Part shown: in pieces, positions 5,559 through 63,933 of the stretch
How positions within the stretch are numbered: position 1 is the stretch's first letter
How the letters are laid out: each line of letters begins with the position of its first letter
Assembly: GCA_973895155.1 (NCBI GenBank)
Contig: OZ316891.1
Span: forward strand, 24,427,899-24,491,898
DNA: 64,000 nucleotides
DNA from: Marsupella aquatica
Lineage: Eukaryota; Plantae; Marchantiophyta
Direction: 5' to 3'
The notes under the pieces: model-generated
What the model was told of the DNA's origin: nothing
The model's database searches: none
The model's input: only the letters and a program-made list of their open reading frames with translations
Program-made: the position numbers and the translations under genes

Positions 5559-5586
5559 CTGTCGGGGAAGGTAGTCGACATGGATC

Positions 5587-26576: not shown

Positions 26577-26603
26577 TGCAATGAAGGTAAATTCACCCAA
26601 AAA

Positions 26604-37749: not shown

Positions 37750-37929
37750 GCAACAGCTGGCGATCGGCAAGTATGAGGTTGAGGATGACTACCTGCACAG
37801 AGTCACAGAACGGGAATTGCTGCCCAGAATGATGTTTAGGATAGTTGGATATGCATGAAATTGATTGATACTTTGAATTTAGTGTGCTGATTCTCCTTGT
37901 TTGGTTGTGGGTGCTGTGCAAAAGCTATG

Positions 37930-40900: not shown

Positions 40901-41080
40901 GCTAAATTCCATGGCAAAGTGGTCCCGGATGACCATGTAGTAGTGTTGTTGACTACATTGATTGTATCTAATTGTAATTTGCCATTTCCAAATAGAGACG
41001 ATGATCCACCTCAAGAAATAATTGCAGATGCAGTAGGATCTTTTGTGCTCTGGCCATCAGAGTGTGTTAGTCTGCAGTGA
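37930..41080 (+). CDS. CACTA TnpA-like multi-exon gene (Ptta/En/Spm-type region plus C-terminal Tnp1-like domain)
   Basis: WTRLIKGFMSEAGQSKSELMSNARGKVKHLSQAGRGSY; C-terminal FHGKVVPDDHVVV..LPFP..IADAVGSFVLWP; many GT-AG introns; exon limits approximate. Confidence 0.7.
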
Positions 41081-42198
41081 CTGAATACAAGTGTAGATAG
41101 AATCATGTGAATTGTGTTACATTTTGACATTGCCTTGGAAAGATCCAAGAAATATCTGTACCAATTTTTCCATTTGGTAAAGAGGATGAAGGAGCCGTTG
41201 TGTGTGACATTGATATTTCTGAATTCTGTATGTATGAAACAAGTGATTGATGTCAAACTATGGCTCTATGGTGATTGTCTATGATACTTGAATCTGTTTT
41301 GTATCATTTCAGTATTAGTGTGTATGGTATAGACGAATGCTTTGTGACCGAGATAGGTAACATCATCAGTTATCAGTGACTGATAACTTATATCAGTCAC
41401 TTATATCAGTGAAGGGTCCATAGTGAGGGGATGTGGGCGAGGTCTCTGACATTGGCAAGGATATGTTGGCGTAATCGCCAACATCATAAAATCATTCAAG
41501 CGGACCCAATATGTCCTTTCTGTACTCATTAATGCGACCAAATTAGAATGTCAGCGAGACCGCCGACTTGATCTTTACTATAATTGTTTTGGAAACTTCA
41601 TACATTGTCTCTCCTTGGTGGGTTAGGCGCTACGCTTGGCTGTTTCGTGTTGGGAAAAGATCTCGGCGAGGGTCGCCAACTTCACAAAGCTGCGTGCTCA
41701 AAACAAAGCTGTCTACTCAAAACCGCAAAATGTGTCAGAGACCCTCGTCGAGTGTTGCATGGCATTGGCAATCTGACGTACGTCCAGCAATCTGCCGTAC
41801 ACCAGCATATCTTGGAGAAGGCCACCGAGATCTGGCCGAGTATCATCTCAGAGACCCTCGCCGAGTTTTGCATGTCGGCGAGGTGGTCGACATTGGCGAT
41901 CTGACGTACATCCAGCGATTTGACGTACCCCAGTATATCTCGGAGAAGGCCGCCGAGATCTGACCAAGATTCATCTCAGAGACCCAAGCTGAGTTCTGCA
42001 TGTCGGCGAGGTAGCCGACATTGAAAAAACACCGTGCCAAACATGTTTGTCGTGCAAATGTCAAGTAATTTATTAATCACAAACTCGTACAAAATTTTTC
42101 CATGTTACAAAATCTGAACCAAAACTACCAGGGGTGAGGATAAATTCTTCTAAACTAAACCTAAACCAACAATGGCGATCGACCTAAACCCTAAATGA

Positions 42199-42927
42199 TC
42201 AAATGTCATCACTATGAAGCCCGTACCCACTATCGGGATTGTTGCTCTCCCAACTCGCTACATCGTCACACCACAACAATGTGTGTAGCCTGTTCTCCAC
42301 CCATAGCTTGACCCTTCCAAGCTCATCCTCGTCAAAGAAACTGTCATACAGATCCCTCTCATATCTCTCTATCCTCCAAACATAATATGCCACCCAAGAC
42401 TTCAATGATATAGGTGACATCATCGCGAGGGCATCAATAGGAGGAATTTGACGCAAGAGGACTCGAAACGTGGACGCGGTTGAGTGTCGAGTCCAATGTC
42501 GATTTTCAGATATGTTTTCAACAATGTCCAGCAGCACTTTTATGGCTGCCCATCCCTTTGAGTGAGTCATTAGGAATCTCCATTTCCTACTAACTCTTGA
42601 TAATACACGCATGTTGTTGATTGCGTTGAATGTAGCATTATCATCTCTGCCATGAGCATTTGCACATTCAAATCTGTTTCGAAGTAGAGGCCAAATGTGT
42701 CCCTCCGTCTGATCATCCGAGAGGCCGAGGATGAGACTCTGCTTTCGGGCTTCCTGACTGCGCAATGGATAAGGCATAGGCTCCCCCTCAGAACTCCCGG
42801 GAGAACTCCATATTGACAACTTATCGGAAAGAGCTATCAATTTCAGCTCAGTAACGGTCGTCCTGAACGTCTCAAGCTGTGCAGCACACTTCTCATGATA
42901 ACACCTCTGCGCATTGGATCCTTCCAT
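42199..42927 (-). CDS. F-box-like small protein type A (MULE-1 cargo)
   Basis: SLILGLSDDQTEGHIWPLL..LSRVSRKWRFLM, an F-box-like pattern; paralog 48498-49184. Confidence 0.65.
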   Translation of the reverse strand: MEGSNAQRCYHEKCAAQLETFRTTVTELKLIALSDKLSIWSSPGSSEGEPMPYPLRSQEARKQSLILGLSDDQTEGHIWPLLRNRFECANAHGRDDNATFNAINNMRVLSRVSRKWRFLMTHSKGWAAIKVLLDIVENISENRHWTRHSTASTFRVLLRQIPPIDALAMMSPISLKSWVAYYVWRIERYERDLYDSFFDEDELGRVKLWVENRLHTLLWCDDVASWESNNPDSGYGLHSDDI

Positions 42928-43530
42928 GTTGAACAAGAGAATAGTGTCAAGTGGAGACCTCCATGATAAGGCAACCAAAGAGTGAATAGTGATATGGATG
43001 ATTGACCTCACAAATTTTGCCCAAAACTTATGGTTTTATTGCTAGGAGCAGATTAACTACAAAAACATTGTCTAAATATTATGGGACTGTTCGATATATT
43101 ACGGAGTCTCCTATCTGTTATCCATCTTAGAGAGGGTCTCTGAGATTTTGCGGATTGTGCCCGCCAATTTGTCAACACAATATAGTAGACTTATCTCAGA
43201 GACTCTGACCGACTTCACGAGGACAAAAGTGATGGTAAACGACCTCTCCAAGACACATCTTAGAGACTCTCGCCAACATGAGAAGGACAATTGTGTACTG
43301 CCATGTATGTTGAAGAGGTCACTAACATAACGAGAACACCGCACTGAGATTCCGCTCAAAAAATTAGAACTTTTACTATTCAAATTTTTTTGTACAAAAT
43401 TGTCTAATTGGTCTATTACACAAAATTGGTCTAATTGTTCTAATTGGTCTATTACACTAATGCAGGCTGATATTTGACATGGCATTCAATGTGGGCAAAC
43501 AACTTTCACATTGGTGCTCAGTCAATGCCG

Positions 43531-44208
43531 CTAAAAATTATCACGATTAACAGGAACACCATTATCAAGTCTTTCTTGAACCTGTTCAATGTACCAGTTA
43601 TCAACACGAGTCCTTTTCCAAGACTCTACTTGCGCTTGCTCAAGACCATATACGGAGAGGTAGCAATCCACTTCCTCTGAAGCACATAACAACCAAGAAT
43701 CAATCCTTTCATTTAAGATACTATCAGACAACCGACTCCAAACATCGATCGGTGGGAACGCTCTCATTGAATCTCGAAAGAACAAAGGGGTCACTGTAGG
43801 CCATCTTACGCGACAAAATGCTATAGCTGTAGTCATTGCAGCCCATAGTATGGAGTTTGTTATCAAATGTCTCCATTTCCTGTTGATATGAGCAACTGAT
43901 CGCACCGTCAGGAAGAGAGTCTTCACTGGATGATGACCATCCCGAACTGGATCCAAAACTGCAACACCTTCGAGCATTGACCGAATCCGGGGCCAGATGT
44001 GCAACTCCACAACCTCATCAGACAACCCTGGAATCAAGTTACTCACTAGAGGGTGACATTGTAGGGGATAACGAGGATTCCAAATGCGAGCACGGTCTTG
44101 TTCCTTACTAGCCAGAAGCGTCCGCAATTCCAATCTAAGCTTTTGTTGTGTCCTATCAATCAAAAGCTCACGTTTGCCTGCGCCGCGACCATAGTAAGTT
44201 TGTAACAA
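43531..44208 (-). CDS. F-box-like small protein type B (MULE-1 cargo)
   Basis: NLIPGLSDEVVELHIWPRI..VAHINRKWRHLI; paralog 49973-50701. Confidence 0.68.
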   Translation of the reverse strand: MLQTYYGRGAGKRELLIDRTQQKLRLELRTLLASKEQDRARIWNPRYPLQCHPLVSNLIPGLSDEVVELHIWPRIRSMLEGVAVLDPVRDGHHPVKTLFLTVRSVAHINRKWRHLITNSILWAAMTTAIAFCRVRWPTVTPLFFRDSMRAFPPIDVWSRLSDSILNERIDSWLLCASEEVDCYLSVYGLEQAQVESWKRTRVDNWYIEQVQERLDNGVPVNRDNF

Positions 44209-45376
44209 AAAAACATGCCTAATCTGAGAGCGGGCGGATGGTCTACCCTCCTATTGTGACCCTGTCCATAGCAAACCCTAAACACTAAACTGACAAGAAC
44301 AACGGATACATAATATCGGTCACATAAAACGGTCATTTATCCTAAACCCTAAACCCTAAACCCTAGGCCCAAAACAAGTGACCCTATTTGGCTGTTTGGT
44401 AAATGTCGACGAGGGTCTCTGAAATACAATGTCAGCGAGGGTCTCCAAGATACAATGAGGAAGGAAACCTATTCATGTCGGCAGAGGTCGTCCAGATCAG
44501 ACAATACCGGCATTTGATACAAGTTTGCCGACCTCAAAGTCAAGATTGGTTGGTCATTTTTCCTGAGTAAAGGTACATCATCAGTTATCAGTGACTGATA
44601 ACTGATATCAGTCATTGCTCGTCGCGCTTAACACTTACCTGCATGTCGGCGATTGTGCTCAGATTGGCCCGGGGATCTCGGCGAACTCGCAAACATCTCT
44701 GATTCAGGGTTTACGGTCTTGAAACGCAAAGCAATAAGCATAAAGGCGGTGTCCGTACAGTTTTAGGCGACCATAGCCAGAATGTCAAAGAGGTCGCCGA
44801 CATAAGGTCGACATGATGTTTACTAGAAAAACATTTTACAACCCATATATTGTAATTCGTCGGCGATGCTCGCCGAGAAGACATCATCGAGATACTACTA
44901 CTAGGCTGCTGGTGGTGCCAGCCTTGAAAGAAGTAATCAACGAGAATTGTGATGCAGTGTAGAATCCTTGGGATCAGTTGCGACCACCAGAAGATCAAGA
45001 TGTTTGCCCAATAAGAGAGCTTATAAGAAAAGGTAGCATGAATTCATTGTCATTCCTTGGCGATGCTCGCCGAGAAGACATCGTCAAGAGACTGCTACTC
45101 CTACTTGTCAAGCCAAGGAAAATGCTCTCGGCGAGGGTCGCCGACTTTACCATGACAGATTCAGTAATGTATAACTAAGCTGCCTAATCTGCACAAAATA
45201 TTTCATAAGATCTGGATTACACAGCCGATTAGACGGATTTCTACTATTATCGTCCAGTTTAATTTGACACTCCATAAAATCATTACCGACGAACGATTCA
45301 ATAACTACCAAAATGTATCAAAACTTTGAGGCTACAACGTTCCTCTATTTCCTACAAGTAAATGTGTACACGAAAT

Positions 45377-46166
45377 TCATGTTTTTTGTACATTCACTCC
45401 AGTGAATGCCCCCAATTCAGCTCTTGCCGAGAGGAGGTCATTCATTTTTACCCATAGATTCTGGACGTTGTCACACATGTCAGATAGCCTAGCCTGCATA
45501 TCTACATGAAGGCTCATAAGCTTCTCGAAGTCTGACTTGCTATTCGCGATCTCTGCATCCAAACTCTTCAGCAACTCTTTAGCAAACACGAAGTCAACAT
45601 CAGCATATTTCGAACACTCGGCACTAGGCGAGTCCTTGTGGCTGGTTGTGTTGTCGCGACCGTGGAACTTAGCTGCACCGTCTACGGGCATCTTCAACGT
45701 CTTGTTCATTCTGTTTGCATCACCAACAGCCTTGCGATTATCTGGAGATCTCAACAGACGAGGAGCTTCACCATCACCGTCTGGCAGTGTGGTAGCCATT
45801 GCAATAGGATGCTTCCTGGGGCGACCTCATTTCCTCTTCTCTGCCAAGAGCCGAGGAGCTTCATTATCAGGTAACGCGATCGACATTACGATGGGATGCT
45901 TCCTCGGCCAACCTCGTTTCTTCTTCTCTGTCAAGAGCCGAGGAGAAATGATCAGGTAACGCTATCGACATTACGATGGGATGCTTCCTCGGCCGACCTC
46001 GTTTCCTCTTCTGCGGGACGACGTCCAAAACGGCGAAGATAGTGGGTGTGTGCCTGTCTTGGACACCGATCACAGACTCCACTCTGGCCATGGTGCTCTG
46101 CCCTGATGAGAAAGAAGGTGAAAAATTGTAGGGCGCACCGCGCTGCCACATTGCCTTCACCTCCAT
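45377..46166 (-). pseudogene. AT-hook repeat protein with C-terminal coiled coil (MULE-2 cargo; frameshift and stop)
   Basis: KRKRGRPRKHP repeated three times in tandem units at about 45790-46015; C-terminal LKSLDAEIANSKSDFEKL..LWVKMNDL heptads. Confidence 0.65.
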
Positions 46167-46699
46167 CTATCTAGTCCGTGTTGTGGTGACCTGCAACGTA
46201 CAAGACAATCATCATCATTGCCACTAAAAATCCAGCAATTATTGGTATCCTATCCCTAGACGGTTGAAGGGACAACAACGTCCGCTCGTAATAACGGGTA
46301 CATGTCTTTTCACACACACTCCAGGTTTGGCCAACAAATGAGTTAATGTTGATTTGACCTGCAACGGTCAAGACTGTCAGGATTAGTTTTTGGCACTGTA
46401 TGAGCGTATGATTCCATAGTTACTACGTAATCCCATTTCGGCGAGGATCTTTGAGATCAGAGGCTAGCGACTTCTTTGTTAGTTTGACAACAAAGAGTTT
46501 AGGGTGTAAGTAGATCTCGGAGAGGGTCTCCGAGATCTGGTGGTTCTCTCACTCGGCAACGGTCAAAATTATGATCCTAAGTTCCATTTCGGCGAGGGTC
46601 TCTGAGATCCGGTTTCTTACTTTTCCTTGGTAAGTGCGATTTCGGCAAGGATCGCAGACATCCGGTTGGGAAGTTCCATTCCGACAAAGTTCCATTCCT

Positions 46700-48170
46700 G
46701 CGAAGTTCCATTCCGGCGAGGGTCACTACATCCGGTTTCAGTGCCATTTCGGTGAGGGTCGTTGACATCCAGTTTCAGTGCCATTTCGGCGAGGGTCGTT
46801 GACATCCGGTTTTAGTGCCATTCCGGTGAGGGTCGCTGACATCCGGTTTCAGTGCCATTTTGGCGAGGGTCGCTGACATCTAGTTTCAGTGCCATTTCGG
46901 CGAGGGTCGCTGACATCCGGTTTCAGTGCCATTTTGGTGAGGGTCGTTGACATCCGGTTTTAGTGCCATTCCGGCGAGAGTTGCTGACATCTGGTTTTAG
47001 TGCCATTCCGGCGAGGGTCGCTGACATCCGGTTTTAGTGCCATTCCGGCAAGGGTCGCTGACATCTGGTTTCAGTCCCATTTTGGCGAGGGTCGCTGACA
47101 TCCGGTTTCAGTGCCATTTCGGCGAGGGTCGCTGACATCCGGTTTCAGTGCCATTTTGGTGAGGGTCGTTGACATCCGGTTTTAGTGCCATTCCGGCGAG
47201 AGTTGCTGACATCCGGTTTTAGTGCCATTCCGGCGAGGGTCGCTGACATCCGGTTTCAGTGCCATTTCGGCGAGGGTCGCTGACATCTGGTTTCAGTCCC
47301 ATTCCAGTGAGGGTCGCTGACATCCGGTTTCAGTGCCATTTTGGCGAGGGTCGCTGACATTCGGTTTTAGTGCCATTTCGGCGAGAGTTGCTGACATCCA
47401 GTTTTAGTGCCATTCCGGCGAGGGTCGCTAACATCCGGTTTCAGTGCCATTTCGGCGAGGGTCGCTGACATCCGGTTTCAGTGCCATTTTGGTGAGGGTC
47501 GTTGACATCCGGTTTCAGTGCCATTTTGGTGAGGGTCGTTGACATCCGGTTTTAGTGCCATTCCGGCGAGAGTTGCTGACATCCGGTTTTAGTGCCATTC
47601 CGGCAAGGGTCGCTGACATCCGGTTTCAGTGCCATTTTGGCGAGGGTCGCTGACATCCAGTTTCAGTGCCATTTCGGTGAGGGTCGCTGACATCCGGTTT
47701 CAGTGCCATTTTGGTGAGGGTCGTTGACATCCGGTTTTAGTGCCATTCCGGCGAGAGTTGCTGACATCCGGTTTTAGTGCCATTCCGGCGAGGGTCGCTG
47801 ACATCCGGTTTCAGTGCCATTTCGGCGAGGGTCGCTGACATCTGGTTTCAGTCCCATTCCAGCGAGGGTCGCTGACATCCGGTTTCAGTGCCATTTTGGC
47901 GAGGGTCGCTGACATTCGGTTTTAGTGCCATTTCGGTGAGGGTCGCTGACATCCAGTTTCAGTGCCATTTCGGCGAGGGTCGCTGACATCCGGTTTTAGT
48001 GCCATTCCGGCGAGGGTCGTTGACATCCGGTTTCAGTGCCATTTTGGCGAGGGTCGCTGACATCTGGTTTCAGTCCCATTCCGGCGAGGGTCGCTGACAT
48101 CCGGTTTCAGTGCCATTTTGGCGAGGGTCGCTGACATCCGGTTTCAGTGCCATTTTGGCGAGGGTCGCTC
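46700..48170. repeat. 37-bp tandem satellite (~39-40 units)
   Basis: Unit GACATCCGGTTTCAGTGCCATTTCGGCGAGGGTCGCT, contiguous, no spacers. Confidence 0.97.
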
Positions 48171-48497
48171 AGATCCGACAAATGGCGAATGTCTCCAAGG
48201 TGAGTAGCGTTCACGAACACTACATCTTGGAGACCCTCGCTGAATTCCAACGGTGCCGTTTGGATGTCGGCGAGGCCGCTGGGAGGGAAAAAAGACCACA
48301 CCAATAGTACGATAACGTAAGCTTTTTTATTATTGAAAAATGTCGTACAAAATTAGTCCATGATACTACCCCTGACCTCATTACTACGTGATGAGTTCAA
48401 GTCATGACATGACCTAGTGGCCAGTGGACCCTATCGACAATGCTATCCGCGATGACCTCCTATGCCTTCACAGTCAAATATCACTAGAATAAAGCCC

Positions 48498-49184
48498 TTA
48501 GCCACTGTCCGGATTGTTGCTCGGCAATTTTTCTACATTGTCACACCATAAGATTGGGGTTAACCTGTTCTCCACCCAGTCCTGGACTCTTCCTAGCACA
48601 TCTCCATCGAAGAACTTATCATACAGATCCCTCTCAATTATCTCCGTCCTCCAGACGTAGTTTGCCACCCAAGACTTGAGTGATGTAACTGACATCATAG
48701 AGAGGGCATCAATAGGCGGAATTTGTCGTAAGAGAACACGGAACGTACACGCGGTTGAGTGACGATTCCAATGTCGGTTATCGTCCATGTTTTCAATGAC
48801 GTCCTTCACCACTTTTAACGCTGCCCATCCCTTGGAGTGAGTCACGAGGAATCTCCATTTCCTGCTAACTCTGGACAATATGCGCATGTTGTCGATCGTC
48901 TTGAAGGTAGCATCATCATCAGTGCCATGTGCATTTGCAGACTCAAATGCATTTCTAAGTAGAGGCCAAACATGTCCCTCTGTCAGCATATCCGGGAGGC
49001 CAGGGATGAGACTCTGCCTTTTTGCTTCTTCTGCTTCCTCCGGAATAGGCTCCCCAATACTCCCCCATATTGAGAGCCGATCAAAATCAGCTTTCAATTT
49101 CAGCTCAGTAATTGTCGCCGTAAACTTATCAAGGTGTGTAGCGCACTTTTCATGATAATGCCTCTTCGTGTATGATCCTTCCAT
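48498..49184 (-). CDS. F-box-like small protein type A (MULE-2 cargo)
   Basis: SLIPGLPDMLTEGHVWPLL..LSRVSRKWRFLV; collinear with 42199-42927. Confidence 0.68.
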   Translation of the reverse strand: MEGSYTKRHYHEKCATHLDKFTATITELKLKADFDRLSIWGSIGEPIPEEAEEAKRQSLIPGLPDMLTEGHVWPLLRNAFESANAHGTDDDATFKTIDNMRILSRVSRKWRFLVTHSKGWAALKVVKDVIENMDDNRHWNRHSTACTFRVLLRQIPPIDALSMMSVTSLKSWVANYVWRTEIIERDLYDKFFDGDVLGRVQDWVENRLTPILWCDNVEKLPSNNPDSG

Positions 49185-49519
49185 GTTGGAGAGCCGCTTG
49201 AAGCAAGTTTAGCCGCTTGAAGCACCCGTGAGATGAAGATGACACCCAACAGATTGAACACAACAACCAACCAACCAAACAAGCGAATGAAGAATAGAGA
49301 AAGTGCCCTCCTCTTTATAACGACAGTGACATTGACATATTGGTTTCGACGGTCTCCACCTGCGAAGTCTGCGGGTTGATCTTGACCCTGTAGGGGCTGC
49401 GCGCCGGTCGCGCAACGGGCGTAGAACGTCTGCCTTCGTGGGGAGGTTCTCCCTAAGAAATGAACAGCGATGTCATTTCTGCCCAGTGCGATGAATGTCA
49501 AAGTGTAGAAATTCAACCA

Positions 49520-49790
49520 AGCGCAGGGATAAGTGAGAAGGACGTTGAAAACCCTAACGAAGAGTGAAGAGGAAGAGGAAGAGTAAGGAAGAAGGGAGCA
49601 CGTACCGCACGTACCGCACCGCACAAAACTATGTCATGGATACGGGACATCCCAACTATACTTGACAACGTACATCTTGTTAACGGACCAAACAAGAAAG
49701 TACGCAAGGGAAGTACGCAAGGGTCTAGGATTTACGGCCCAGTATAGGGGGTACGTGTTTAGGGTTTAGGGTTTAGGGTAAACCCTAAAC
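49520..49790 (-). promoter_or_regulatory. GTAC-rich upstream module with telo-box repeats (copy of 57420-57770, inverted)
   Basis: About 270 bp of clear inverted similarity with 57420-57770; upstream of the F-box type A gene. Confidence 0.6.
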
Positions 49791-49972
49791 GGTCCAAATG
49801 TCAAAGACCCTCGCCGAGAATTGATAGTGAAAGATAGGAAGGATCTCATGTCGCCAAGTATTTATTACTCAAAAAAGTCGTACAAAATTAGTCCATGATC
49901 TCTAAATCTGAACCAGGTGTGGCGTACTCCTGCATATTCTATACACTAAACCGATAATGACATGAAGTGCAC

Positions 49973-50701
49973 CTAAAAGTTGTCACGATTGACACTTACA
50001 CCTTGATCAAGTCTTTCCTGAACCTGCTCAATGTACCAATTATCAAGACGAGTCCTTTTCCAAGCATCTACTCGTTCTTGCTGAACACCATATATCGACA
50101 GATAACAGTCCGCTTCCTCCGAATCACATAATAACCAGGAATCAATCCTCTCATTTAAGATATCATCAGCCAACCGAGCCCAAACATCAATCGATGGGAA
50201 CGCTCTCATTGACTCACGAAAGAAGTGAGGTGTCAATTCAGGCCATCTTGTGGCACAAAATATCACAGCAGTAGTCATTGCAGCCCATGCTATGGAGTGT
50301 GTTATCAAATATCTCCATTTCTTGTTGATATGCGCAACAGACCGCACCATCAGGCACATATTCCTCACTGGAGCATCCACAAGCACAACATCTTCCAACA
50401 TTGATCGGATCCGGGGCCATATGTGCAACTCCACAAGATCATCAGGCAATCCCGGAATCAAGTTACCGGCTGGAGGGCGACATCGTAGGGGATAACGAGA
50501 GGAGGGGAGATTCCAGATGCGAGCACGGTCTTGTTCTTTACTAGCAAGAAGCGTCTGCAATTCCGATGTAAGCCTTTCTTGTGTCCTATCAATCACCATC
50601 TCACGTCCGCCTGCACTAGGATCCATAGTTTCGAACAAAGCAACAACCCTCATCCCAAGGACCCAAGCGGATTTAGGGTCGAATCTGAGCCTCGCCAACA
50701 T
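49973..50701 (-). CDS. F-box-like small protein type B (MULE-2 cargo)
   Basis: NLIPGLPDDLVELHIWPRI..VAHINKKWRYLI. Confidence 0.7.
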   Translation of the reverse strand: MLARLRFDPKSAWVLGMRVVALFETMDPSAGGREMVIDRTQERLTSELQTLLASKEQDRARIWNLPSSRYPLRCRPPAGNLIPGLPDDLVELHIWPRIRSMLEDVVLVDAPVRNMCLMVRSVAHINKKWRYLITHSIAWAAMTTAVIFCATRWPELTPHFFRESMRAFPSIDVWARLADDILNERIDSWLLCDSEEADCYLSIYGVQQERVDAWKRTRLDNWYIEQVQERLDQGVSVNRDNF

Positions 50702-50943
50702 AAATCCGTAACCCTATACTTATAACGGTCATATTATAAACCCTAACCCCCTAACCCTAGGCCCGCAACCCTGAAGTCCATGTCGGCGAGGGTCGCCAAG
50801 ATGACTCAGGAGTTACGTCGGCGAGGGTCGCCAAGATTAGATGACTCGGCGAGGGTCGCCAAGATTAGATGACACGGCGAGGGTCGCCAAGATGATCTCC
50901 TGAAGAAGGAGACAATGTTAGCGAGGGTCGCCGACATACAATG

Positions 50944-53900
50944 TCAGACGATATTGGCATTTGCTACAAGGCCGCGGACCTCAGTTAGAGTCAAGATAGG
51001 TTGGTTTACACATTGATCCGTGTCAATGTCCCTTTTACAGATGTTTGCAAAGCACCAGTACAAGTGCTTGCACGGGAAGTAGGCTCTTCCCATCGACTCC
51101 CTATACATGAAATCCTTGCAGGAGCAACTTGGGAAGACACAGATCTGGACGCAATGTACTGAAGTTTGCCCCCTGCTAGTGTTGTTCACCATGAGCCTTA
51201 TGCCGGTAGCATTCCCTGTTTCAATTCTCCTCATTGACGTGCACACAATGGCCTTGGTCTTAGCATTTTGGATACGTGCTAATGCATCCTTGGGGGGGTC
51301 TGACCTCCTTCGCCTTGCCTGGCCATTGCGGCGAGTACCATGATCGTCAGGCCTTGTAGGATCTGGCCGCTCTGGGTATGTGTTCAAATCCATGATGATG
51401 TCGCCAACACTCACTACCTCATTCATAACATCACCACCAGAAATGACATCCACTCCATTGTTGTGCAGGAAAATAACCTTTGCTTCTGTAAGATTAGTAC
51501 CACGAGAGACCGAAAACTTTGAAGGCAGTGGTGGTAGCACGCCGGTAATGAAAGGCAAAGAGGATTTTGTGCAACACTGGTTGTTCGGACAAAACCAATA
51601 CGGATATGGAACACCTGGTTCATTAAATTTACTCCCCGCCAGCCAACAAATACCAACAACACCCAATCCGCTCACTTTCAATCCTGCCTCTCTAATAAAT
51701 CGAGCACATACTCCCCGTTCCTTGCCTTTGAACGCACCTCTACAACCGGGACTCTTACCACATGTTGAGATGCGGGCCAGAAATAACGTCCCTGGCACCA
51801 AATCAGTTTCTTGAACATGTCTTCTGATGGGCTCCAGACGTGGGGTTGACCTTGTCGTCCGTTGGAGAGGTTCCACAATGACAACTTCAGGCTCGCCCGA
51901 GCCACTACCGCCATCAGAAGACAGATCCACAACTTCAGGATCTGTGCTTTTTAAGGTTGTGTCCCTGTTTGCAACCCCCTTGAACTTCCTCTTCTTTGGT
52001 CTCGTTACCAGAACAATGTCAGGCCTGTGTGAATCTTCTACTACCACATGAGCGCCAGATACGGCCTTCCCGCACTTCATAGAAACCGTTTCTACATCTC
52101 CGCTAAGTGGGTCCGCCGACGAGAACTTACGCAATTCTGGTTGAGTTATAACTGTGTTCAATTTTGAACAGAAAGATTCCACATTCCCAACAGCAGTAGC
52201 GTCTCGAAGTCGGAGTTCAAATAGGCTCGGTCCCCGCCCTTTCCTCCCACTGTGTTGGTAGTGCTCCAAAGATGCAACCTGGCTCAATGCTCGAGTTGCA
52301 TCTAAGTTACAGGACTGTACTAACCCAACCTTTCTATTAGAGGACCATTTCCGCATGACCGCATGCACCGACTCTGCCCCGCTGTGGTTAGGCATCAGCG
52401 CAGCCTTTTCTCTGTCCATCTCCTACAATTTCCAAGAAGAATGTCAATACAATTGGAAACATATCTCGGCGACCGCCGCCGATATTTGACAGAAAGCGTT
52501 ACAGACAGAGGTCGTCCAATTGAACATCCCTTCAACTGACCCCATGTCAGCGAGCTTCGCCGAGATTTGACAGATTTCATGCATATAGAGGAAAAGCGTT
52601 AGACACTTACGAGTCTCAAAAAATTTCCCCATTGAGAAAACCGAACAATCCACCAAGACATCCACATTGTGAGCTCCTTCGCTTTTCCGGGTAGCGCGTT
52701 GCCCTCGCTCCACCACGTCTTAAGCTTCTCAAAAACTCGAAATGCAAGAACTATGTTGCCGGCATGTCGAAGCGAATCTAGAATTTCCTTATGCTCAAAT
52801 CTCTTATGTGGGACAATGTGCTTCTGCACCCTCTCCACTGATTGGGCCCAGTGAAACGCATCAGAACTCTCTCTATGGGTATTTACCTTTCCATCCCAAA
52901 ATTCATTGTGGATTGCATTCCACCCAGCAGCAGCATTATCAGCCATAAAGCCACAAAATTCAACATTGATAAGCCCATGTTCTCCACACACCCTCCTCAT
53001 GACCTTCCATGCAGTTTGTAATGCCGCACTATCTTCTGAAACCAGCTCACAAACAAAGATTGTGCACAGGCCCCGATAGAAATGGTCATACACGTGTGCT
53101 GACATGGTGCACCATTTGTTGTCAAGTATATGATGCATCACATCAGACATCACCCATGAATGCTCGAGATCCCCGCTGCATTCTTCGAACAAGGTCCACC
53201 CCGGAACCAGGACCTTCTGTACTCATTTTAAAAATGTGCGGTCGCTCGTCTGTTCCCACGTTCTGGGATGGGAACAAAACACTTTGGATAAACGGAAAGG
53301 CAGTCACCTTCCGCATCTCCAGTATCATGTTAAGATCAGATGACACATGACTGTACTTCTTGATGCTCCTGATCATAGAGCGAAAAACGGATTCATCACC
53401 GAGGATGGACAACATTTCATTAAGGTCTCTTGCCTCCTCAGATGTCACCATTTCAGCCACTGGGTCTTCAAGGATATCTTTAAGTTTCTGTATTGCCTCG
53501 CCCTTGATAACAGACGGCATAGCAGTTGGACTCCTCTTCAGCTCCACCTCCACAAGATTGCGCACAACTGATCGTTGATCCTTGTTATGCGTGAACATTG
53601 CAGGATGGGTGTGATTTCCTATATGCATCGCAACACGAGACTTGTGACAATAATTCACGTCATCCTTGGTTGGAGTGATATAGTACATCTCACTTGGGCA
53701 TCGAGCTATACACCTGGGAGGCCTCTTGCAGTACGTACAAATTACACTCGACGGGGTAACATCGCGTCCAACAGGGAAAGGTAGCTCATTTGTGCCTGCT
53801 CGATCTCGGGTCCACTTTGCAGAATTGTGCTCTTGTCGCTGTTGAAAATTTTCACAATCCTCATGCAGACATCGCAGAGAACCCAAACACTTGACACTTT

Positions 53901-55121
53901 GGATCTTGTACGAGTGACTATTGTTGTTCAGCTTTGGGCCAATGTTTGCTCCTGTCTCAATTAACCGGCTCCACATGTAACAATCGTTCTTGCGCTCCAT
54001 CCCAAAGAAGAAACAACCCTTAGAGTATGGACCAGTAAAGGGTGGCAACTCAAAAATATGGTCTCCATCATAGAATTCTGGCAATCGCAGAACTCTCTCG
54101 GGCAATTTCATGCTCAAAATCTTACAAGCAACTTGTACACAACGAGAGGTCCCTTTTCCGTGCAACATGGCATGAACAACACTGACAAGGAACTCATCCT
54201 TCCATACCGAATCACCATCTTGGAGACCCTCGCGGAGGATGGATGCCTTTGAACGAGGTGTCTCCTTTGGTTGACGATAACAAGCTCCACGATCCTCCCA
54301 GAATTGGGATGTGTTTGACTGAGGTGTATTCATTGGTGAAGGTTCACCATCTCGAAGACCCCCTCTGACATGAATCCCACTGGATCGAGGTGTCTCCTTT
54401 GGTGGAGTATCACCATCTCCGCGATCCTCCCACATTCGAAATGAATTCGACCGAGGGGTACTCGTCCGAGAAGGTTCTTCATGTCGGAGACCCTCTTTGA
54501 CATGGTGTGCACTTGGTATGCACCCCGTCTTTCTGCAGAGAATATAAGACGCGCCATACTTCAGGTACCACTCTCGCTCATCTCCATCTCCTTTGGATTC
54601 AGCAGACGTGGACAACCCGTCCTCGCTCTCCTCATAAATCATGAAATATCACCCTATTCATTAAAAGTGTATTTTATTTTGTTCACTTTTAGGCCTCAAA
54701 ATGTACACTTTTTGGTCTCTAAATGTACACTTTTTAACCCCAAAAGGTATACTATAGTACAATAGTCTACACCTAAATAGTCAATTGTAAACTTGAGGGA
54801 GAAAAAATGAGCTTTACTAGAAGGAGTCTCATCCTAGTTCATTTATAAAAGATGAACATGGTGGTATGTCTGATGGCCATCACTTTTATTTCTTGCCCAA
54901 ATGTACACTTTTTGAAAGCCAAATGTACACTTTCTATTGCCCAAATGTTCACAAATTGAATAATAATTCACTTTTAATGAATAGATTGATAAATCCCCTA
55001 CCTTCAAACCAAAACGGCTCGCTACTTCATGTTCCTTAGTCACTCGGACAATGTCAACGTTAGAATTATGAAAAACAACTACATCCCCCGTTAAAGATGT
55101 GATAATCACAAGAGAGGCCAT
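50944..55121 (-). pseudogene. MULE-2 Mutator-like transposase (GCM-like, DDE, SWIM)
   Basis: Same motifs as MULE-1 (FMADNAAAGWNAI, DAFHW, GAESVHA, CSCKDF..PCKHL). Intron 52610-52423; 5-bp deletion frameshift near 53175; MITE in the first exon. Confidence 0.9.
54648..54990. mobile_element. 343-bp MITE with ~22-bp TIRs and 4-bp TSD AAAT
   Basis: ATCACCCTATTCATTAAAAGTG .. CACTTTTAATGAATAGATTGAT; AAAT at 54644-54647 and 54991-54994; empty site seen in MULE-1 near 14035-14052. Confidence 0.88.
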
Positions 55122-55489
55122 GTTTCCCGAATCCACATAGGGAATGATCTGACATCCCTTAAAACGACAAACTTTGAGGCTCAGCGTTAACGCACCTGTA
55201 CGTACCAGTTACGGCCAAGAATACCGTTCCGGACAACGTGCGTAGAGAAATCGTATGACCCAGAACGATACTTATAACGATACAACGTGCGTAGAATGAG
55301 CGTATGACCCGCAACGTACTTATAACGAGAATTGTACCGCAAAGAAGGTACCTAATTGCCAGCAGCCGCCAAGAAGGTACATTTCTGCAATGTGTGGATG
55401 TGGTACATTCTGCACGTCGTGGTCTTGAAAGTCCCATCGTGCGGGCCCACAATCCCTCGTGCGGGCCCGATCCCCTCTTTGCCCTACAT

Positions 55490-56320
55490 CAACTTTTTAT
55501 CCATACTACTCGGTGAGGGTCTCTGAGATCTATTCGGGACTCCTGGGGCCCACACTCCTGTGCAAGCTCGAGTTTCACAGTAGGAAATTTGTTGACTTTT
55601 CAACATTGACTGTTCAACATCGACTCTCCGAGTCGGAGCATCATCGACTTTTTATCCCTACTCCTACTCGGCGAGGGTCTCTGAGATCTATTCGGGACTC
55701 CTGGGGCCCACACTCCTGTGCAAGCTTGAGTTTCACAATAGGAAATTTGTTGACTTTTCAACATTGACTGTTCAACATTGACTCTCCGAGTCGGAGCATC
55801 ATCGACTTTTTATCCCTACTCCTACTCGGCGAGGGTCTCTGAGATCTATTCGGGACACCTGGGGCCCACACTCCTGTGCAAGCGAGAGTTTCTCAGTAGG
55901 AGATTTGTTGTTTTTGCAACATTGACTGTTCAACATCGACTCTCCAAGTCGGAGCATCATCGACTTTTTATCCCTACTCCTACTCGGCGAGGGTCTCTGA
56001 GATCTATTCGGGACACCTGGGGCCCACACTCCTGTGCAAGCAAGAGTTTCTCAGTAGGAGATTTGTTGTTTTTGCAACATTGACTGTTCAACATCGACTC
56101 TCCGAGTCGGAGCATCATCGACTTTTTATCCCTACTCCTACTCGGCGAGGGTCTCTGAGATCTATTTGGGACTCCTGGGGCCCACACTCCTGTGCAAGCG
56201 AGAGTTTCTCAGTAGGAGATTTGTTGTTTTTGCAACATTGACTGTTCAACATTGACTCTCCGAGTCGGAGCATCATCGACTTTTGATTTCGTCTCTTACT
56301 TGGCGAGGGTCTCTGAGATG
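55490..56320. repeat. 158-bp tandem array (5 units plus partial) upstream of the MULE-2 transposase
   Basis: GAGGGTCTCTGAGAT at 55515, 55673, 55831, 55989, 56147 and 56305. Confidence 0.95.
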
Positions 56321-57419
56321 GATTTCGATGTAGGATTCCCAGATTGCCTCCTTGGTGCAGGTCTACTTCAGAGTTTGGTGTCGGTTGTTTGGAGTGCATA
56401 TCATACTCGGCGAGCCTCTCTGAGATATATTCGAGCATTGTAAAAGAGAGAAAACGCCGGTCTGTACGGATATTTGCAAAAAAAATTGGATTCATGGTAC
56501 GGAGAAGCGTTTCTAGTTCCATAATCCCATTTGGGCGAGGGTCTCCGAGATATATTCGAGCATTGTAGAGGAAAAAACGCCCAATTTGGAGTTGTCGAGT
56601 CATTTTGTACGGATAATTGTAAAAAGTTTATGGATTTATGGTACGGAGAAGTGTTTATAGTTCCATAGTCCCATTTTGACGAGGGTCTCCGACATCTTGG
56701 GTCCCATGGCGGGGGACTAGTGCCTCTCAATTCCATCTCGGAGAGGGTCTCCGAGAGACACGATGCTTGATCTGCCTTACCTTTCCTCCCGTGATATGGT
56801 CCAAGAGTTTAGAGGCATTGCCATTTCATGCACACTACTCCTTCTCGAAGAGGGTCTCTGAGAGTACAAGGTGTCTGAAGTTCTTCATCTCCTAGATAAA
56901 GTGAAGACATTTGGGGCACGCCTTTCTATGTTGGTGAGGGTCTCTAACATGGAGCAGGGGTCTTTTGGATTTAGATTGTCAACTTCCTTGTCCACAATCC
57001 TCTTTTGCGAGTGTCTCAAAACAGGATGACTGCCAGATGTGGCACACCACGCCATCTCGGAGAGGGTCTCCGAGATCTATCGGTGCTGTCTCATTGCAGC
57101 TTTGTATACCCCACCCAAGGGTATATAGGTTTAGGGTTTAGAGGTCTTTGTGAATCCCGCTATCCATTCTCGGCGAGGGTCTTTGAGATTTGGACTCGTA
57201 TTGTGGGCCCCCATTCCCTCTTTGGGACGAGGCTCCGAGATGTTGACACGTCTCAGTATTGGCCCGCTATCCATTCTCGGCGAGGGTCTTTGAGATTTGG
57301 ACTCGTATTGTGGGCCCCCATTCCCTCTTTGGGATGAGGCTCTGAGATGTTGACACGTCTCAGTATGGGCCGCAATTAATTGTTGGCGAGGGTCTTTGAG
57401 ATTTGGACCCTAAATCTCA

Positions 57420-57770
57420 TACCCCCGTACTGGGCCGTAAACCCTAGAACCTTACGTACTTTCTTGTTTGGTCGCGTACTTTCTTGTTTGGCCCGTTAAT
57501 TAACAAGATGTACGTTCTCTAGTATAGTTCGGATCTCCCGTATCCATGTACTTGTGTGCGGTGCGGTACCGGGGATCTCTTGTATCCATGGAGTACTTCC
57601 GTGCGGTGCGGTACGTGCGGTACGAGGGTCCTTCCTTACTCTTCCTCGTCACCGGTGCGGTACGTGCGGTACGAGGGTCCTTCTTCCTTACTCTTCCTCA
57701 TCACTCTTGCTCTTCACGCTTTGTTAGGGCTTTCAACGTCGTTCTCACTTATCCCTGCGCTTCCTCACTC
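57420..57770 (+). promoter_or_regulatory. GTAC-rich upstream module of the MULE-2 ParB/MTase-like gene (separated from it by the inversion)
   Basis: Homologous to 11310-11420 and 49520-49790; followed by a CT-rich 5'UTR-like stretch. Confidence 0.55.
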
Positions 57771-58250
57771 TTCATCATTCACTCCCCGTCTCATTCACTC
57801 CCCGTTATTCCTCACGCATCCTCGCTCTTCCTAGGTCCCCTCCGCTCTTCATCCCAGTCTTCCAATCACGTTGGCTTTCCTCTCTTCCACTTATTCTCGG
57901 CAAGTGTGGCCGTGTGCCCTGGTTTGCGAAGGTGTTTTGAAGGCTTCACCTTGGCGGCGGTCGAGTCTCATAGTTTCAAGCTCTGTGCTGGTTGGCAAAG
58001 GTGATTTGAAGGTCTCAGTTTGGTTTGAGCTCGGCAGCGGTCGACTCTCAAAGTTTCAAGCTTTGTGCTGCAAAGGGTGATTTGAAGGTCTCAGTCGGCG
58101 GTGGTCGAATCACTCTCAGCGGGTTGTAGTTTCAAGCGCGGCGCTTCACCCATCTCCGAGGTTGGATCTTTTGTTCACTGCATGACTGTCTACACGATTT
58201 GAAGGTATGTTGCAAGCTCGACATGTCAAAACTTTTGCTCGGTGGGGCTC

Positions 58251-60778
58251 CATAGGGTACATCCATCTGGTACTGACTGGCCCATACTGCCCTAGCTCTT
58301 CTACCACATGGATTAGGAGATGAGTCATAACATCAAAGAAAGCAGGGGGGAAGTATATCTCCAAGTCACAGAGGACATAAGCAGCATCCTGCTTCAACTG
58401 CTCCAATCCTTGGGGATCCCACACTTTCACACATATACGGCGAAATACATTGCACAGTCGAAGAATGACATTACGGACTGGTTTCTACATGAGACCTCTG
58501 AGGCATAGGGGCAGAATGTGCTGCATCAACACATGGTATCATGTGTTTTCATACTGCCAAGTTTATTCTTTGTAATATGCTTCTTGAAGGCACCAACATA
58601 GCCAGAGGGCACTTTCAGACAGCTCAATCTATACAAGAATGTCTTCCATTCTTCCTGTGTGCACACATAGGGAGCTTGGAACTTGAGAAGTACATTGGGA
58701 TTGCTTGCATGGGGCTTCAACCAAAGGTGAGGGCGAATCCCCTTCTGTTGCATATCAGCTCGAACTGCTCTTGTATCTTTCTCACCCGACAAGAACTTCA
58801 GCAAGCTCTCACAAATATTTTTCTCAATGTGCATGACGTCCACATTGTGTTTGCTGGGCTCGAATTCCTGCACTCCACAAAGCAAAGAATTCAGCAACAA
58901 AAACACTAATTAACCACATAGGAGGATTATAACCAACATCAATCCACCATTGCTCCAATCTAAAATTGCAATCATACAGGGGCTGGAGGCTAAGTACATT
59001 ACCCTCCAGTACTCCAACTCCAAGTCCATCAAGGTCTGTCTTTTCACACCGTGTTTCACCACTGGATCCTCAGGTTCTCGATCAGTGGCACTTCTCTTGT
59101 CCCAATCAGCCTTCCTGGCTGCCCACCTCAGGACTTGCTCTCTGGTGACCCTCTGTGGTGGGCCACAAAGCTCTGTTTTGTTGTTGAAGTGTGCAATTTG
59201 AGACCGTGTGTGCGTGTAAGGATGATCAGCAGGCAGATACCTTCTATGCCCCTGAAATTTCATACTGTGCAGGGCATGCGACCACTCACTTGTCACATTT
59301 TTCCCACATGGTGTGCACCCCACATAGCCCTTTGTCACTCATCTAGAGATGATGCCATGGCCTGGGTAATCTGCTATATCCAGCAAACAAATTGCATGCA
59401 GTCTAAAGGGGCTGGGTCAAAGAAGCCCCTTAAGAACATCATGGGTTAACACCCCTTCTATCCACAAAGTCTTCCACTCTTCCACTGCTGGAGCCAACAT
59501 GATATCTATGAATTGCTTGGTCACAGAAGCTGGTCCAAGGATTAACAGCACCATCATGACAAAAAACCTCTTTGTAGTCATCCATGGGGGAAGGTTGTAA
59601 TTGAGCAGCGTAACCGGCCAACATGAATAACGGTTGTTTTTGTCTCCAAATGGGTTTACTCCATCCAGTGATAGGCCAAATCGAAAGTTCCGCTTCTCTG
59701 CAGCAAACTGTGGCCACCTCTCATCAACAAATTTCCAATGGTTGGAATCTCCAATGTGACCCTGCAGGCCATCACTGCTCTTGTTATCAGGAGTGCATGT
59801 CATCAGCTTGGAAATGGCAGGGCATCTAAACAAACATTGTAGTCTAGGAATGAGAGGAAAATGACGAAGAACCTTGGCAGGGTGTGTACATTTCCCTACA
59901 TTCTTGTACCTGTGCTTACCACAATGAGGGCATGTCAATTTATCTGCATGCTCTTTGCGAAAGAGAACACACCCATCAGGGCATGCGTCAATAGACACAT
60001 AGTTCAGCCCAAGGTTAGACATCAATTTCCTAGCCTCGTACATATTTTTTGGAATTGAATTACCATCTGGTAACACATTTTGGCGCAGGAAGGTCAACAA
60101 CTCTGTCACAAATATATTGGGAACATTGTGATTGCCACAGATGTTCAACAACAACACAACAAAGCCCAGCTTGGAGTAGTTCGACCCCTCGTAGATAGGA
60201 ATGCAAGCTTCTTTGATGTGTTTTGGGCCCCCAAACACCCACTCCCTCTCTGCTACACCTTCCCCAATGTCAAAGTCAGGTTCAGCTTGGCCGTCTCCAA
60301 TGTGTGGCTGCGGTTCATTGTCCTCTTCTGATTCCATTGTGTCGTAAAAAGCATCAAGGTCTTCAAAAATCTCTTGAACCATTCTTGGGACATCCATCCC
60401 ACCGTCTTGGTCATCCACGTTCTCATGTTGGACCCCAGGACCATCCTCTGCACAGTCTATGTCCTACTCTACGTAGTCTCTATGCCTAGCTGTATTAGAA
60501 TCCACAAAGTCAGCTCTCCACTCTTCATCAAAGGAGTCTTCTTCTGCTGGTACATTCCAAACCCTCCACCGAGGGTGCCTTTCATGCCGCAGCAGGTGAA
60601 GGTGCACAGTGTTCAAACTCAACGACTTGAATCCTTGGCACTGTGTGCATGGGCATCTCATCCTCCTACTCCTACCTTGGGCGGCCCGGGCTTGTTCACG
60701 CATCCACAATTTAGAATCATGATGCCTAATCCTAAATGGGTTGTGAAGAGGCAACCTTGGAGCCATCACTATACACAC
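58251..60778 (-). pseudogene. CACTA Tnp2/TnpD transposase N-terminal part (transposase-associated domain, Transposase_21, DUF4218-like)
   Basis: RCPCTQC..VHLHLL; IDACPDGCVLF, VLRHFPLIPRLQ, GLSLDGVNPF, YNLPPW; DVMHIEKNICE; FPPAFFDVMTHLLIH..GPVSTRWMYPME; several frameshifts. Confidence 0.93.
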
Positions 60779-61097: not shown

Positions 61098-61667
61098 CTA
61101 CCACATCAAATACGGATACCAATCCTGTTGTCGATGCCACTCAGCCCTGAGGTACTCAGGCATGTACATTAAGTCATCAAGGTCTAAACCCTGCTCATGC
61201 CATGGTGGTCTTCGATCCGTGCCTACAAGCAGTGGCAGCAGTGCCCTCCATGGTGCACATGTTGCTACCAAGTCCCTCCACTGGGTACTAATTAGTCTAT
61301 ATTTGCAGATATCTTGTGCGCCAGACACCACAAGAACCCTCGGCCAGACATGTGTAAGAAGTATATCATCTGCCAAATCAGGCAACAAGGAACCACCTAC
61401 AGCATCGTGCTTGTCTAACTCATCTGCTGAAAAGTAAATGTCCTCTTCGGACTGTGCATCCTCATTCACCACAGCATTCACAACATATCCAAGGTCTGCA
61501 GGCATTATCTCGGATGGAGCTACACTCTGTCTGGTTACCAATCCACACAAGTAAGCCCAAGCAATAGCCATGCACGATGCAACCCGTAGGAGGACCCTAC
61601 ATAGGGCTTGTCGGTCTGGAAGAGGCAGCATACCCACCAAAGTCTTCAGCCAAACAGAGCCTAGCAA
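61098..61667 (-). CDS. F-box-like small protein upstream of the CACTA transposase
   Basis: SLLPDLADDILLTHVWPRV..YRLISTQWRDLV; start uncertain. Confidence 0.55.
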   Translation of the reverse strand: MLGSVWLKTLVGMLPLPDRQALCRVLLRVASCMAIAWAYLCGLVTRQSVAPSEIMPADLGYVVNAVVNEDAQSEEDIYFSADELDKHDAVGGSLLPDLADDILLTHVWPRVLVVSGAQDICKYRLISTQWRDLVATCAPWRALLPLLVGTDRRPPWHEQGLDLDDLMYMPEYLRAEWHRQQDWYPYLMW

Positions 61668-61807: not shown

Positions 61808-62740
61808 TCACTTTCTCCCACCATTGGTAAGCATACATCTTCGCTGAAGCTTGGAGGGCCAGGCCTCAAAAATATCAAAGTCCCAAGCATTCTGTCGTTT
61901 CCCTCTCGCTGCTGATTCCAAAAGCCAATCAGGGGAAAGCACCCAAAGATTGTTGTTCATGACAAAATGACGCACTGTTGTCTTAAAGAATTTTCTGCAT
62001 ATTTTCATGTATGACAAACCTACAACATGAGTGGAGGTTTCTGTTAGACTCTCCTCCACTGTCCCACCTAGCTCAACAACTATGGACTTGTACAGTTTGC
62101 ACTTAGTCTCCCCAATTCCCTCTTCTGCAAATACCACACTGAACCCCTTCATAATGGTATTTCTCTCCTTGCCATGCTCATTCAATATAGCATCTGCACG
62201 CATAGGATGGTGTCCTATGTTGACAACAGGTCCATATTGGACAGAAGCAAAGTTGGGTTTCTCTGCCGCTGCTTCATAGGCTTCCTTTTCAGCCAAAGCC
62301 TCTACAGTGGCCTCCTCACTCTCCCACAACTCATATTGCTCAGTAATCTGTACACACCTATGTTTAACAGAATCAGTCAGCCAAGAGACTTCAACCACTT
62401 TTAGACCTTGGTTGGTAATGGCAGAATCAATGAAGGACCATGACCACTTGTTCATCACATTCAGCCATGTCCCCGCAACAACATGTGTAGTCTGTGGAGT
62501 GATGTCCTTGACTTCAGTCCCATTGAACTCTGAGAATCATTTTTGTACAATTGGCCAACTCACTTGGGTGAACCCATAGTGGCTAGGAATCAAAATGGCT
62601 TTGATTCCAGCCAACAGATGCGGGTGGTCAACCTTTGTACATTTCCTAGAGGCCATGTACACACACCCCACCTAATCATTGCAGACCGGAAGATAATGCG
62701 TTCACCTGATAATCGAAGGGCCCCTAAAATGCTGCATTTA
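61808..62740 (-). pseudogene. Tandem BRCT-domain protein (in-frame stop near 62537)
   Basis: TTHVV..KVVEVSWLTDSV and IVVELGGTVEESLTETSTHVV..VLSPDWLLESAARGK, two BRCT signatures; 5' limit approximate. Confidence 0.72.
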
Positions 62741-63252
62741 TAACTTGGTCCAGTCCAGTCGTTTGGTGAGTCTCTGCTCCGATTCCAAGCAGGGGAAATA
62801 TTGGGACAAACGTACTAGACACCTGCAAGGATGCACCTCATAGTTTGAATATGTGCCTTCACAATATTGAAGGTGACAAGTGCAATTTTTTTGTGATGCC
62901 ACATACAGATGTTGTAAATGGGCAGACATTCAATGAGAATACAAAATGTTGGTACACAAACAGAATTCTCGCAATTTAAATAGCCTTGTAACTTATATGC
63001 TCATAATCAGAAGTCCTGATTTAATTTAAGCAGTGTCATGTAAGTCGTGATCAAAATGATTGCAGAGTTAAAAAAGTTCCTACAAGGCTTAAGGAGAGTT
63101 TTTGAAGGCATGTACCCAGGAACAAGTAATGAACTTAGGGTACTTGTTGCCTAAGCATCCTCTCCTACAGAGGTCCTTCTTCTCAAAATTGGAATGTTTG
63201 CAATCTCCAAGGTATCCACATCAAGTGCACTATGCAAGTACATTATTCAGAT

Positions 63253-63933
63253 TCAAAGCCAAGAAATGTGATCTCTCATAGGAGTGTGCAAAGTAGGATC
63301 TATGGCATGGCGATGACAATAGAAGATCCATCGATCAACACCATGTGCAGAGTGATGATAGATGTGTCTGTCACAAGCATAGCCTTCTGCTTGACGATCC
63401 TTCAAACAATGAAAGTGCCACATGGTGGGACACCTAACACAGTGGACTATGTCCACCCAAAAATCTTCATCGTGCTGACCACATGCCTTGCACTTATGAA
63501 GTGGGCAAGCTGTGGCAAGATCGGGCAAACATGAAAAACAAAAGAACCTCACACAATATCTGTCAGGGCATTTCCTAACAAGTGGTGGAGCATCAACAGA
63601 GCCCTCATAAGACCCCAACTTCCCACACTGTGCACACTTAGCCTGCTTCTCCAAACAATCAGTGCACATCCAGCCTCCCTGGTGTGCTGACGGGAGGCCC
63701 ACCCCTGGACAGTTGTTTTCTGCAGCAAGGTCAGACTCGGGGTTGAGGTGGAAATGCCTCATGCAAGGGCCCTCACATATGGCTAAGCCCCCACCATCGT
63801 CACAAATGGCACAACAATGAGCTGCCTTCTGGAAAATCTGACGTGCGGAGAAGTTTCTACCATCAGGCCCAACTACACCTGTGTTGCTCACCTCTGTCCC
63901 CCGCTTCTTGGCTCGGATTTTAGGGCGTGCCAT
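63253..63933 (-). CDS. Stand-alone EDM2/NSD-type tandem PHD finger protein
   Basis: CAICDDGG..CEGPCMRHFH, C..CGKLGS, CPLHKCKAC, CVRCPTMWHFHCL and IFYCHRHAIDPTLHTPMRDHI, matching the EDM2 PHD block including its YC..H.ID..L.TP.RDH tail. Confidence 0.85.
   Translation of the reverse strand: MARPKIRAKKRGTEVSNTGVVGPDGRNFSARQIFQKAAHCCAICDDGGGLAICEGPCMRHFHLNPESDLAAENNCPGVGLPSAHQGGWMCTDCLEKQAKCAQCGKLGSYEGSVDAPPLVRKCPDRYCVRFFCFSCLPDLATACPLHKCKACGQHDEDFWVDIVHCVRCPTMWHFHCLKDRQAEGYACDRHIYHHSAHGVDRWIFYCHRHAIDPTLHTPMRDHISWL

Follow-up and report, generated by a model that had tools for sequence, protein, structure and literature searches.

Close to one end of the analysed window, i.e. the whole stretch of 64,000 nt, lies a minus-strand open reading frame for a stand-alone EDM2-type PHD protein (Table 1). 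Its 226 codons are uninterrupted, and a basic start is followed only by a Cys/His block; position, strand and the absence of stops agree exactly with the initial annotation. The gene had also been called intronless, which holds across the coding stretch and is less certain upstream of it, where an AG dinucleotide resembling a splice acceptor precedes the ATG by 2 nt and would allow for an intron and a further coding exon. A BRCT gene, an F-box-like ORF (F-box clusters at 0.90-0.92) and the Tnp2 transposase gene of a CACTA element lie downstream of the PHD gene in the same orientation.

Table 1. Features of the CACTA element, its cargo genes and the rearrangements that interrupt it, with positions in the window.
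Feature	Position	Strand	Remarks
Stand-alone EDM2-type PHD ORF	63253..63933	-	226 aa, intact, read 63933 to 63253
H3(1-9)-like leader, residues 2-10 ARPKIRAKK, directly after Met	63904..63930	-	5/9 identical; pLDDT about 52
Family-specific motif [FWY][ST]xxExxQK[AS][AP]H before PHD1	63814..63852	-	host EDM2 has an acidic stretch here instead
Zinc-finger block PHD1 - PHD2 (His-to-Cys ligand swap, short linker) - PHD3/variant - tail YCxxH...TP..DHISW	63256..63813	-	
BRCT gene	61808..62850	-	E 5e-10; 5' limit and introns uncertain
F-box-like ORF	61098..61631	-	similar to another F-box-like ORF of the window; no Pfam match
Tnp2/TnpD transposase, 5' part	58247..60766	-	E 4e-35 (PF02992); cut at inversion breakpoint
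Inverted CACTA remainder: Tnp2 3' part, DUF4216, Ptta/TnpA-like ORFs, start of 3' end	36593..41340	+	
CACTA terminus CACTAGTAGAAAC with dense subterminal ACGACT/AGTCGT repeats	3493..3935	.	severed by Mutator-like element A
Mutator-like element A, inserted in CACTA 3' end	3936..41350	.	9-bp TSD 3927-3935 and 41341-41349
21.7-kb inversion	36593..58250	.	4-bp microhomology GAGC at both ends; splits CACTA transposase and Mutator-like element B

The CACTA element can be traced from the PHD side to a TIR at 3493 via two nested Mutator-like insertions and the inversion. This is the sole CACTA TIR in the window, and AGTC/GACT reaches 44.8 per kb at this terminus compared to 6.8. The inverted CACTAGTAGAAA end expected for the second TIR had no match in the 64,000-nt window, which places the far TIR past position 64000. 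The proposal to locate the TIR was therefore answered for one terminus, and the second one lies outside the window. In total, the element measures at least 10.9 kb with the order PHD, BRCT, F-box-like ORF, TnpD, TnpA-like ORF and TIR; further matches to PF13963, PF13952 and PF03004 within it stayed below the cut-off. A repeat end at 41.36-41.41 kb was also considered as CACTA TIR and rejected, since the same motif occurs at 3945, 25170 and 44571, flanked by 9-10-bp TSDs; it belongs to a Mutator-like element.

The surroundings are shaped by two giant nested Mutator-like elements, A (3936-41350) and B (25161-44565), with TSDs of 9 and 10 bp and palindromic ends. The interior of element A is rearranged by element B and by the inversion, which could be real or an assembly join; if it is undone in thought, element B becomes collinear with element A. 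They carry an Ulp1 protease and paired F-box-like genes, and related F-box-like cargo occurs in the CACTA element and in the Mutator-like elements (48498-50701 and 42199-43977; pairwise E 3e-7). Telomere-like repeats were seen at 25130-25150, 44341-44365 and about 50740, and the transposase-like ORFs at 50944-54642 and 13861-17728 gave no clear Pfam match in the part scanned. Element A furthermore harbors a Copia-type retrotransposon (17803-23686) whose 175-bp LTRs are 97.7% identical, and element B contains a 40-copy array of a 37-bp unit (46704-48177), which is based on a CTCGGCGAG-type motif that is found again throughout A and B. An intact ORF of 1003 aa (32530-35541), with a coiled-coil-like part and no clear Pfam family, sits in a GC-rich segment at about 31.8-36.4 kb that is missing from element A.

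That the PHD gene belongs to the CACTA element had initially been assumed; it gains support from an even sequencing depth, from a matching base composition and from the trace to the terminus at 3493. In run X1, the main contigs reached depths of 1912 and 1817 (Tnp2), 1772 (F-box), 1768 and 1648 (BRCT), 1880 (spacer) and 1978 and 2740 (PHD), compared to 117-127 in the adjoining Mutator-like element; depth is not to be equated with copy number here, and none of the contigs reaches all the way from PHD to Tnp2. The step at 58.0-58.3 kb appeared in 4/4 runs compared. Depth was uneven in run X5, with 19 in the spacer and 41-75 in Tnp2, and run X10 provided only six contigs of 31-53 nt. The CpG observed/expected ratio amounts to 0.31 in the PHD gene and to 0.27, 0.38, 0.28 and 0.24 in the other CACTA parts, compared to 0.85 and 0.69 in the neighbours; the Mutator-like elements (0.85) are thus far less depleted than the CACTA element. 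Such CpG depletion indicates long-term methylation of the CACTA element and says nothing on the effect of the PHD protein. Both the X1 depth and the shared CpG depletion show that the BRCT, F-box and PHD genes are co-amplified with Tnp2, and we are highly confident that the PHD gene is cargo of the CACTA element. Of the counter-silencing cassette that the three cargo genes were initially proposed to form, it is this co-amplification that is supported, and a joint role against silencing stays hypothetical.

According to a loose end at 63280 in runs X1 and X9, there are diverged PHD copies whose 3' flank differs, and the gene is hence carried by more than one family of elements. Diverged copies of this kind account for the doubled depth over the PHD ORF better than a duplication within each element would, because the spacer depth stays at 1880.

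The two halves of Tnp2 are joined in other copies, i.e. the X1 contig continues from 58247 at 36597 on the plus strand. Compared to the run contigs, Tnp2 has acquired three stops, a frameshift and a 27-bp deletion, and on this sequence comparison the transposase of the present copy is to be regarded as dead. The BRCT gene has a premature TGA at 62539, where the run contigs read CGA. At the lesion rate of the transposase, the PHD ORF would be intact by chance with P of about 0.31; intactness as proof of selection was rejected on this ground. Among the listed read differences within the PHD ORF, 6/10 are silent (P 0.02, weak), compared to 2/15 in the BRCT gene, a contrast that is weak because 3/4 upstream stops of the BRCT gene fall within 70 bp, possibly inside an intron.

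Sequence searches revealed a whole family of such proteins. Cluster representatives yielded 239 matches at E up to 0.001, and the best of the 150 listed among them have a length of ~220 aa. Long plant proteins come next, and a part of these bear the name EDM2, such as those of Cryptomeria and Selaginella. The first search gave 5 full-length relatives with 38-81% identity, and short family members made up 11 of 13 matches in a profile search. The family as analysed here comprises 28 sequences assigned by length and motif, with two near-duplicates left out. Every member checked carries either no name or the label 'hypothetical' and originates from Logan, JGI or ENA contigs, i.e. the ORFs were called on short genomic contigs, on which upstream exons would go undetected. 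Zn ligands, start region and end are shared by members down to 32-47% identity. Only 2 distant NSD-like proteins were found when longer forms of the family were searched among 3403 candidates, a result that is weak by the tool's own caveat, and two metagenome scans for the flanks of relatives gave 247 and 47 pattern matches with 0 confirmed. For the distant relatives, no linkage to a transposon was seen.

Phylogenetic analyses separated the family from the host proteins. FastTree, using 75 of 132 extracted PHD blocks with the long hosts thinned to every fourth, united 15/15 family members in one clade (support 0.997), and IQ-TREE with 34 sequences did so for 14/14 members (UFBoot 99, stem 0.61). 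The EDM2-type tail motif lies 1-9 residues before the stop in 11/28 family members; it was found in 75/92 long hosts, where a median of 630 residues still follows. The description as a stand-alone EDM2-type gene is hence confirmed by an own clade of ~220-aa proteins ending after the zinc-finger block. The suggested phylogeny against host EDM2 placed the family as a separate, long-stemmed clade, and such a diverged family speaks against an exon of a full-length host EDM2 gene, which the initial annotation had named as the alternative. From these comparisons, the transposon-associated PHD family appears to be old and related to EDM2.

The closest hosts by profile are liverwort paralogues in which the PHD block ends the protein; one higher score belongs to a protein with a doubled block. 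This EDM2-like clade consists of Marchantia Mp1g03210 and Mp4g03050 and of Calypogeia proteins. Like the transposon family, these paralogues have the PHD block near the C-terminus and obtain the top single-block profile scores, and the motif [VI]xCxRCPxxW is shared by 13/14 family members and 6/6 liverwort paralogues, compared to 1/12 other hosts. Unlike the family, they are host-annotated genes that retain the His ligand and the acidic residues. In the AU test, a sister position of the liverwort paralogues (p-AU 0.33) was neither rejected nor preferred, and canonical EDM2 as sister (p-AU 0.13) was not rejected. The short host-annotated Mp4g03050 (P0058, 280 aa) contains an internal RPKMKASK that resembles the family leader, and it might connect the transposon family to the paralogues of the hosts.

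In Pfam, the PHD ORF matches PHD-1st_NSD and PHDvar_NSD, each under its curated cut-off; DNMT1-RFD, present in 4/9 long host proteins scanned, gave no match in the ORF, and neither did the SET and PWWP domains that are traits of NSD methyltransferases. A sequence search of solved structures returned NSD2, with a match confined to the PHD region (E 0.009), and no structure of EDM2. AlphaFold predicted a fold with a mean pLDDT of 88.6 that is confident from residue 28 on, whereas residues 1-20 stay near 52, and the N-terminal leader segment is likely disordered in this model. Foldseek matched PZP and NSD/PHD domains with whole-chain TM-scores of 0.2-0.28 and found no full-length structural match.

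The protein shares with EDM2 the zinc-finger order and ligands (block of PF23011, PF22908 and PF23004) and the YCxxH...TP..H tail. Apart from these common features, EDM2 comprises 750-1600 aa compared to about 220 aa in the family, and its N-terminal RFD and long C-terminal region are missing from the PHD protein, while the family differs in being transposon-borne and in having an H3-like leader. Moreover, the block itself is remodelled. The acidic stretch before PHD1 is replaced; D/E at -2 to -4 of PHD1 occurs in 0/26 matched family members (of 28) and in 79/82 matched hosts (of 92). The PHD2 ligand is Cys in 14/14 family members and His in 16/18 hosts (2 gapped), and the PHD2-PHD3 linker has 7 residues in 14/18 members and a median of 27 in the hosts (97/109 matched), i.e. 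about 20 residues are deleted between the fingers with the Zn ligands otherwise kept. In AIRE-PHD1, Asp297 sits just before the first Cys. Its exchange to Ala is described to weaken H3K4me0 binding (PMC3471955). Because the acidic residue before PHD1 is lost, the binding of H3K9me2 reported for the PHDs of EDM2 (PMC7472560) should not be assumed for the family. The initially proposed simple truncated H3K9me2 reader is not supported in that form, given this loss, the His-to-Cys exchange in PHD2 and the deletion of ~20 residues.

The second peculiarity is the leader. Histone H3 starts with ARTKQTARKS (PMC5499861), and the present protein with M-ARPKIRAKK matches it at 5/9 positions, while one relative reads M-ARTKQKAYK (7/9). 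Leaders were compared with H3 in n=24 members (4/28 are without leader), of which 10/24 have >=5 of 9 identities, 19/24 have >=4 and 5/24 have 3 or less. The summed H3 score of the 24 leaders is 100, compared to 63.9+-3.1 (maximum 76) for shuffled leaders, 68.0+-5.5 for permuted H3 (0/2000 reach 100), 58+-3 for length- and charge-matched basic windows from host proteins and 54-76 for 11 other H3 registers, around H3K27; all these tests overstate the significance because the 24 leaders are related and the likeness was noticed post hoc. A matched basic window reaches 5/9 in 0.14% of cases for the present leader, and this single-window rate of about 0.1-0.3% is the fair significance. None of 100 long proteins starts with M[AT]RxK. 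However, the motif is internal rather than at the free N-terminus in about 8 members. Position 3 of H3 corresponds to a Pro in the present copy, which also lacks Ser10, as do most members of the family. Ordinary nuclear proteins, too, can begin with a MARPK-type sequence. The start had at first been described as basic and NLS-like; it is indeed basic but, according to the four controls, closer to the H3 tail than to a generic NLS. As far as sequences so related can tell, the leader matches the H3 tail motif beyond its composition.

Taken together, we infer that the CACTA accessory protein may act as a histone-tail decoy on a PHD scaffold that weakens host silencing, the most likely of the readings considered, to which we assign a probability of roughly 0.4. 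Removal of Met would free an A-R-x-K-x-x-A-x-K leader. Enzymes or readers of the host that act on H3K4/H3K9 would take hold of this leader, with the folded PHD block anchoring the protein to chromatin or to a partner from the host. H3K4/H3K9 factors would then be occupied or misdirected and the element would stay transcribed. Such a decoy would act in trans, and it could come from intact copies, given that the transposase of the present copy is dead. The wider claim of a dedicated H3 tail mimic that a lineage of plant DNA transposons has retained over a long time, with the H3(1-9)-like leader on a rewired PHD scaffold of EDM2 type and with titration or redirection of the H3K4/H3K9 machinery as its effect, is doubtful at present.

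Other explanations have to be considered. A captured EDM2 reader could still bind H3K9me2 tails and compete with or recruit the ASI1-AIPP1-EDM2 complex to obtain full transcript processing. The whole EDM2-type block and the C-terminal tail motif are kept and the predicted fold is confident, and besides the H3K9me2 binding of the EDM2 PHDs, the EDM2-containing complex is described to promote distal polyadenylation (PMC7472560; PMC7529245). Nevertheless, we regard this explanation as unlikely, given that the acidic residue before PHD1 is lost in 26/26 members, PHD2 is changed, and the RFD and all C-terminal regions are missing; moreover, the best single-block host relatives are the short liverwort paralogues and not canonical EDM2. 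The recruitment of processing factors, as originally suggested, finds nothing in the sequence that points to ASI1/AIPP1. A role as targeting factor, in which the PHD protein would bind the transposase complex to a certain chromatin state and thereby direct excision or insertion, with BRCT as the link to break repair, is quite unlikely. Chromodomain integrases and RAG2 are precedents for chromatin targeting, and the PHD gene lies on the same strand and at the same copy level as Tnp2 and BRCT, but the protein has no evident part for transposase binding, and the retention of an H3-like leader would stay unexplained.

The leader could also be a mere basic patch for nuclear import or DNA binding, and the PHD block an interaction module with another role in the life cycle of the element. 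Its basic composition, the 5/24 leaders with little likeness to H3 and the about 8 members with an internal motif are in line with this assumption. We consider it improbable, since charge-matched windows, permuted H3 and other H3 registers score far lower, and Ala at position 7 and the place right after Met would not be necessary for import. Finally, the gene might be Pack-type cargo, i.e. a captured fragment of neutral effect, or else belong to host EDM2 as an exon, as an intact ORF is expected by chance (P 0.31) and a splice-acceptor-like AG precedes the ATG. This is highly improbable and largely refuted by the Zn ligands, start region and end that are shared down to 32-47% identity, by the own long-stemmed clade and by a depth equal to that of the transposon, to which the search for longer forms (only 2 distant NSD-like proteins among 3403 candidates) adds weakly.

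To our knowledge, only few transposon-encoded anti-silencing proteins are known from plants. If the decoy reading is true, a transposon would have turned a host heterochromatin reader into a counter-measure. This would be the equivalent, in a transposon, of the histone mimicry of viruses, and it would counter silencing in another way than VANC. The family would then also offer naturally occurring variants from which the reading of histones by EDM2-type fingers could be worked out. In the literature searched, outside of which most subscription papers lie, neither a transposon-borne EDM2-type gene nor a plant transposon histone mimic was found. VANC of the VANDAL/Hiun Mutator elements is likewise an accessory ORF of a plant DNA transposon with an anti-silencing role; it is set apart by being described as inducing hypomethylation of its elements (PMC6446971), whereas the present case concerns a CACTA element and a putative effect. 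Viral histone mimics such as influenza NS1 and SARS-CoV-2 ORF8 similarly have a short H3-like motif in the protein of a selfish element (PMC13165374). They have 4-residue motifs, animal viruses as bearers and tested effects, whereas here a 9-residue N-terminal match and a PHD block are seen in the sequence alone. Rehavkus resembles our case as a DNA transposon bearing a PHD finger, which is, however, fused to the transposase of a Mutator-like element in animal hosts. Anti-silencing accessory ORFs (VANC), PHD-bearing transposons (Rehavkus) and viral histone mimics are known already, and it is the putative combination of such traits in one element that is new here.
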